NCBI RefSeq assembly: GCF_964194025.1
Contig: NC_134472.1
Coordinates: 76,260,001-76,324,000, forward strand
Direction of reading: 5' to 3'
DNA length: 64,000 bases
Source: Convolutriloba macropyga
Taxonomy: Eukaryota
This document shows, in pieces, positions 43,756-44,816 of the stretch. The notes below the pieces were generated by a model. That model saw nothing but the letters and a program-made list of their open reading frames with translations, made no database searches and was not told the DNA's origin. Position numbers and translations under genes: made by a program. Position 1 is the first letter of the stretch. The number at the start of each line of letters is the position of its first letter.

Positions 43756-44816
43756 ATGCCGTTTTCGGCCACAAAAGATTCTGAGTTTGGGGATAGTTAT
43801 TATGATATTTCAAAGACGGAGAAACGTCTTATCGGGGCCACCCTCAAAACGTATGAGAAGATTGGAACATATGTGTTTCTGAAACTATTCAAAAAAGTTG
43901 ACGACGATTACGAATTTTAACAACGTCTCTCACTGACTACCGAAGAATTTGACAAACTTATTAAAAAAGCACCAAAAATTAGGGAAACTTTTCCAATCAG
44001 TTTACAAGAAGCGGAATCAAAATTGAGGACTGACGGACCTTCTACTGCTAAAAAAATCGAAAAAAAGCTCAACGTAGAAGTCATATTTGAAGCAATGTTT
44101 GAGCGTTCACCTAGTTACTTCAAACAGTTTCAGAAGCAGTTCAAATTTTTAGTCACTAATGAGAAAATTAATTTGTCAAGCGTGGAAACTTTTGCAGTGT
44201 GTTCTCATTTTGATTCAGCATTTTGTCAGTTGCGACAACAACAAACTCTACTAACCATTTTCATGTTATGATAGACACATCAGAAACAGCAACAACTTAC
44301 GATGAAATTTTTAATAGAAACAAAGCTTTCCCCCTATCTTGTCTTTTCACAACTTTTCGATACTTGTTTTCATCAGCAACCGGTTTGGAGACAGAAGGAG
44401 ATGTCTTTTTTAAATTGAAATTAGCGGTTGATTTCAACATTAAAAACGAAGAAAAACCTGAGTCTGCAGCAACAGTGCCGAACCGCTTACCATCAATTGT
44501 TACATCATCACAACAGCAACTGCTCCAGACCAAAACTGCTGGAAACTCCAACAAATTTAATGAAAATATTGTCAAGTCAGTGAAGACAACTGTGGTGCAG
44601 AAGTCATTGCACAACATGATTTCGCCGGGCAAACAAACTCAAACTGAAAATTTCACTAGTGAAACTTTACGTAGATTTGAATCAATTTTAACTGGTCCCC
44701 ATTCTGGTGCTTTTTGGCAGATTATGGATATTTTTGTGAGTGGGTATGGAATTTTGAATATTGATATTGATTTGTTGTTCATTCGTTTTGTCTATGAAGA
44801 AAAAATTAAATTTTGA
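43756..44816 (+). pseudogene. PC4-like ssDNA-binding domain fused to an HUH-motif domain (element B copy)
   Basis: ATG 43756; KRLIGATLKTYEKIGTYVFLKLFKK..QRLSLTTEEFDKL (TAA 43918) is in frame with FEAMFERSP. After a frameshift at ~44220-44250 it reads NHFHVMID. Confidence 0.65.

Follow-up and report, generated by a model that had tools for sequence, protein, structure and literature searches.

The analysed window is a 64,000-nucleotide stretch of the Convolutriloba macropyga genome (RefSeq assembly GCF_964194025.1, contig NC_134472.1, positions 76,260,001 to 76,324,000, forward strand). It contains two decayed members of a large Polinton family, referred to as copies B and C. Both carry a plus-strand unit which the first-pass annotation had described as a single gene fusing a PC4-like domain for binding of single-stranded DNA (ssDNA) to a HUH nickase domain. 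The fusion gene was refuted; the unit is a tandem pair of separate open reading frames (ORFs), A followed by B. With a probability of about one half, the pair is interpreted as a Polinton cassette in which A would be a PC4-fold ssDNA-binding protein, and B a HUH-derived, metal-binding protein that lacks a catalytic tyrosine and binds DNA without cutting it. The following features were assigned to the cassette:

43756..44077, plus strand: gene A of copy B, PC4/Sub1-fold protein (fold taken from relatives), about 106 aa in intact relatives; premature stop at 43918, frame-changing indel near 44050
44083..44816, plus strand: gene B of copy B, encoding a HUH-like His/Cys protein (intact relatives: 241-244 aa); changed around its start and shifted in frame by an indel near 44233
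44086-44241 and 44235-44813, plus strand: gene B profile matches in copy B, in two frames
60535..60873, plus strand: gene A of copy C, a full-length ORF of 112 aa with its usual stop
60886..61554, plus strand: gene B of copy C (intact relatives: 220 aa), starting at an ATG of its own 12 nt past the stop of A; several frame-changing indels

The motifs named in the first-pass annotation, LTxEEF(E/D)KL, AVCxHF, NH(F/Y)HV(M/L)(I/F)D and CL(F/Y)TTF(R/K), were all recovered in translations of copies B and C. Positions 43756, 44023, 60535 and 60886 also share one frame as proposed, but the HUH motif lies outside the frame of gene A in both copies. In copy B, AVCSHF (44194) is in the frame of gene A and NHFHV (44253) is in a different one; in copy C, neither AVCMHF (60990) nor NHYHV (61038) is in the frame of A. 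The frame from 43756 runs into a stop at 43918 and continues through AVCSHF, and the frame from 60535 stops at 60871 and is followed by a same-frame ATG at 60886. These two stops had been attributed to independent decay of one gene. The stop at 60871 is the normal stop of A, because TAA occupies this junction position, 12 nt ahead of the ATG of B, in all 27 copy-C-family loci that yielded a junction (30 loci taken), and the stop at 43918 is a premature one within gene A. Past the indel near 44050, the tail and stop (44075-44077) of gene A in copy B are still readable in the adjacent frame, and it is this indel that makes copy B appear fused. Profile scans of the window found gene B split over two frames in copy B and over three in copy C. 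When each copy was aligned to individual natural relatives, indels that change the frame appeared near 44050 and 44233 (copy B) and at several sites in copy C. Against a 94%-identical relative (L032), the indel near 44233 was the only one remaining in copy B, which means that this relative has the junction indel too.

Relatives were collected from the 1.18-Gb assembly with 150 candidates scored per search, and counts are therefore lower bounds. ORF A comprised about 105-160 aa and ORF B about 185-255 aa. An open frame of more than 200 aa was present in two of the 150 matches listed for the A query, and frames long enough for A plus B in five and four of the 150 matches listed for the B queries. 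The distance from the stop of A to the start of B was 5 nt in nine loci of the copy B family, 2, 17, 18, 19 or 20 nt in further subfamilies, and 56, 25, -8, 13, 2, 8 and 2 nt in seven divergent families; in a third family, the ORFs overlapped by 8 nt in 19 loci. Overall, the distances ranged from -8 to +56 nt. Fusion, read-through and a conserved frameshift were rejected, since these gaps fall in all three frames.

Among public protein clusters, both domains occurred together in six of the best 120 B matches and three of the best 120 A matches. The nine two-domain clusters were single-member clusters with differing junctions; standalone clusters reached 174 members. Fused frames of 328-338 aa were found in a few genome copies. 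The nine fused loci among 110 do not represent a rate, as eight came from stretches chosen for long junction-spanning frames and one (L062) was chosen as an outlier. A preceded B as a separate ORF, with the protease following on the opposite strand, in 11 of 12 divergent-family loci. Genes A and B were each under purifying selection between subfamilies, and their place and orientation were kept across subfamilies as little as about 30% identical. The statement that the unit is the only plus-strand gene of its module was right in spirit, but it concerns two genes. In three loci (L017, L066, L067), synonymous divergence was about threefold higher in A than in B, which suggests recombination between Polinton subfamilies at the A/B junction.

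Structure prediction from relatives gave gene A the PC4/Sub1 arrangement: four antiparallel strands in a curved beta-sheet, then a long helix on the C-terminal side. The top fold matches belonged to the PC4/Sub1 family (human PC4, MoSub1, the phage T5 PC4 homolog and BPSL1147), as did the top Atlas clusters, and the PC4-like interpretation of the first domain was upheld in this respect. The title of the T5 entry ties the viral PC4 homolog to DNA replication. Differences from the family were the Polinton-encoded origin, 12-23% identity, and tails with a basic motif resembling a nuclear localisation signal (32/39) and, often, an acidic end (21/39). The curated Pfam cut-off for PF02229 was not reached: 3 of 55 A members matched below it (best E-value 0.011), and none of seven divergent A proteins matched. 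No gene A loci were found in the viral contigs searched. Because of its predicted PC4/Sub1/Pur fold, gene A is likely the ssDNA-binding protein of the element.

For gene B, the pattern of a HUH motif followed by two hydrophobic residues was found at just six of the 127,996 positions in a six-frame reading of the window. Five residues were near-invariant among 87 homologs: H42 (82/87), C48, H55 (85/87), H57 (84/87) and C80, each in 82-87 sequences. C80 (87/87) was the only invariant residue, and the U position between H55 and H57 was Y, F or W in 85. Loss of the histidines had been set beforehand as a refuting observation, and conservation held. The triad H42/H55/H57 aligned with H39/H55/H57 of RepB from plasmid pMV158. 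The HUH assignment of the second domain is thereby tentatively supported by the motif, the histidines and weak fold matches, but not its extension to a canonical tyrosine nickase. The structure of B behind the fold matches was predicted from an alignment of 53 close relatives. Searches of Pfam, PHROGs and PDB sequences gave no significant match for B, and an Atlas search returned only unnamed clusters at 0.85, with low recognition. The family comprised 381 representative proteins at E-values up to 0.001, including many fragments that come from this genome; B is an unannotated family that is present in other public datasets too. No B relatives were found in the plasmid or phage records searched and no B loci in the viral or metagenome contigs searched. 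One clade of B homologs from other datasets (P0291, P0297, P0326, P0331, P0334, P0338, P0364) had an extra Cys-rich C-terminal tail, C-x-C-x2-C, a possible second Zn site.

In the N-terminal domain of B, no column held tyrosine in more than 58 of 87 sequences, and each was freely swapped for phenylalanine; the catalytic column of the Rep_OBD control held tyrosine in 31 of 32. The position mapped to Tyr99 by a low-probability global alignment was tyrosine in 11 of 87, including the copy B family, and required seven changes when traced on a quick tree. With no conserved tyrosine, a canonical Rep nickase lacks support; a metal-binding protein that binds DNA without cutting it is the likelier identity of B.

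Polintons replicate by a protein-primed polymerase, and comparable viruses need an ssDNA-binding protein; in adenoviruses, the DNA-binding protein coats the displaced strand. A, presumably as a dimer, may take this role on the strand displaced by the Polinton polymerase. B would keep the metal pocket of Reps in the form of a structural Zn site (three His and a Cys), and would use the fold for DNA recognition in the manner of the non-cutting origin-binding domains of polyoma- and papillomaviruses. Its target could be a site within the element, such as the upstream palindrome, or replication intermediates. Translation of B may proceed by re-initiation, by leaky scanning or from its own transcript.

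In the strongest rival, which is unlikely, the cassette is a transcription-control module: B would bind promoter DNA lying between the divergent gene blocks, or the palindrome, and A would be a PC4-type coactivator and not a replication ssDNA-binding protein. This bears on the following feature:

43549..43585, no strand: candidate operator, a palindrome whose two 17-bp arms flank a 3-nt centre that varies; it lies about 205 bp upstream of gene A and is restricted to a single clade of subfamilies

The pattern was found at 157 places in the genome at up to two mismatches, versus none for the reversed control, and the arms were kept across four subfamilies with flanks about 70% alike. In three elements, the half-site was found only at the palindrome and not in the terminal repeats that two of them possess. 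With conserved arms, a variable centre and a half-site outside the terminal repeats, the palindrome looks more like a dyad operator, or a hairpin recognised by its structure, than like a nick site of fixed sequence. The palindrome, which the first-pass annotation had offered as a nicking substrate, exists and is conserved, though only one clade has it. Of 21 upstream regions, 4 had it, and it was missing from the copy C family and most other families; it cannot be the universal target of B. Its absence from 17 of the 21 regions speaks against transcriptional control, as does the poorly modelled C-terminal part of B, with a predicted local distance difference test (pLDDT) score of 28-43.

The regions upstream of A contained a GATA-like box (TCTTATCA) in 11 of 21 (L017, L063, L066, L067, L070, L072, L078, L079, L095, L100, L226) and an E-box-like CACATGT in 7 of 21. 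Both are possible host transcription-factor sites, by raw counts uncorrected for chance.

Somewhat less probable again is that B is an unrelated Zn-binding protein of ferredoxin- or RRM-like fold whose HxH likeness to Reps is convergent. Several observations favour this. The profile match to RepB was short and weak (probability 19-34%, low-confidence model). Fold matches that would point to a Rep/relaxase alpha-beta fold were weak for RepB and CRESS (circular Rep-encoding ssDNA) virus Reps, and RRM and ACT-type folds scored as high as RepB. The Rep_OBD alignment has nothing that corresponds to the two invariant Cys. A search of proteins of 451-2000 aa for longer relatives, for instance a helicase fusion, found none, which is weak evidence. 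Against it, strand order and His spacing matched RepB above all 60 shuffles, and Reps prevailed among the named viral-fold matches.

Slightly less probable than convergence, B could be an active HUH-fold nuclease with a non-Tyr nucleophile (C80 or a His) or water, which would nick hairpins, resolve ends or free the provirus while A holds ssDNA. This is retained because the relaxase MobM offers a precedent with a His nucleophile (accessible text of PMC6736028) and C80 is the sole invariant residue; the His triad is nearly as well kept. By inferred mapping, C80 starts the helix that bears the catalytic Tyr in Reps. Opposed to this, the five His/Cys residues suit Zn binding, and the palindrome centre varies freely, unlike Rep nick sites; moreover, Polintons are established to possess protein priming and an integrase. 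A bolder form, which we consider rather improbable, would make B the founder of a tyrosine-less HUH enzyme class nicking through the invariant Cys that begins the catalytic helix. Paired with a PC4-fold ssDNA-binding protein, it would give this Polinton lineage a nick-dependent step serving hairpin-primed replication, end resolution or provirus excision; such a step is not known from any Polinton. One ancestral fusion of about 340 aa with canonical Tyr chemistry is hardly credible: A and B share a frame in the copy C family, run together in copy B and form the occasional long frames mentioned above, but the conserved stop, the gaps in three frames, the singleton fusions, the standalone homologs and the lack of a conserved Tyr all contradict it.

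B resembles the pMV158 RepB/Rep_OBD initiators (PF01719) and CRESS Rep endonuclease domains in a strand ending in His, a hairpin loop and H-U-H-U-U. It differs in lacking a conserved catalytic Tyr, a conserved Asp matching D42 and a helicase domain, and in having two invariant Cys, much shorter inter-strand segments and a distinct conserved C-terminal domain. Rep_OBD itself had no match in the genome assembly. The particular likeness to densovirus NS1 proposed earlier was not confirmed: the closest motif match was of the RepB type and weakly of CRESS Reps, one parvoviral NS entry came at rank 49 of the 50 matches listed, and the aligned B proteins (164-257 aa) showed no superfamily 3 helicase fusion as in parvoviral and densoviral NS1. 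Mriyaviruses and mriyavirus-like Polinton-like viruses (PLVs) are likewise mid-size eukaryotic dsDNA viruses encoding a HUH domain, a likeness of gene content. According to the accessible text of PMC11253617 and bioRxiv 10.64898/2026.06.19.733378, HUH genes occur in mriyaviruses and some PLV groups, this HUH is described as predicted active, and the ssDNA-binding protein there is a T7-like OB-fold protein.

The conserved cassette is apparently undescribed in Polintons. No description of the A-B pair was found in full-text literature; Repbase, supplements and subscription papers were outside this scope and may hold an earlier annotation. The notion of a HUH domain in Polinton polymerases proved wrong, as the accessible text of PMC11161782 does not use 'HUH' and speaks of homing endonucleases, and 'PC4' in that of PMC11662393 is a table label, not the protein.

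The elements agree with Polintons/Mavericks (adintoviruses) in protease, integrase and terminal inverted repeats, and differ by the added PC4-fold gene and HUH-like gene on the opposite strand. Two neighbouring features were assigned by Pfam:

44847..45323, minus strand: adenovirus-type cysteine protease (Peptidase_C5, E-value 1.9e-7, over cut-off), convergent neighbour downstream of gene B
47778..48536, minus strand: piece of retroviral-type integrase of element B (rve, E-value 8.2e-5, under cut-off; relative in L222 over cut-off, 1.7e-9)

Terminal inverted repeats starting with AGTAGT were present in two of three relatives examined, in elements of about 17 kb; none were seen for the decayed window copies. 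The tested pieces of the putative polymerase B, packaging ATPase and capsid genes of elements B and C gave no matching Pfam family, and these labels derive from reading of translations and BLAST to relatives.

A third, unrelated Polinton-like element at 221-8206 of the window has an open 1075-aa polymerase B (Pfam E-value 6.7e-19), an endonuclease VII-like insert and an integrase-like ORF; A and B profiles had no match within it. In or beside another Polinton copy, a 294-aa ORF (L225:7480-8364) has a signal-peptide-like start and appears host-serine-protease-like by eye. Endogenous CRESS-type Rep genes form two tandem arrays (G000:C5:7.95-7.96 Mb and C9:39.88-39.90 Mb, L191-L205), with 15 Pfam Viral_Rep matches over cut-off at about 1.9-kb spacing; some of the genes have stops. 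Near-identical pieces of pE194 rep on small contigs from bacteria that are not related to each other (Streptomyces, Thermus and others; L132-L138) are probably laboratory vector contamination of those assemblies.

The case shows that two decayed copies can imitate a fusion gene. Gene A is a concrete candidate for the Polinton ssDNA-binding protein, and no report of its fold in Polintons was found. Both proteins are small and easy to assay. B may be a further case of a HUH domain reused for DNA binding or, less likely, of a new nicking chemistry.
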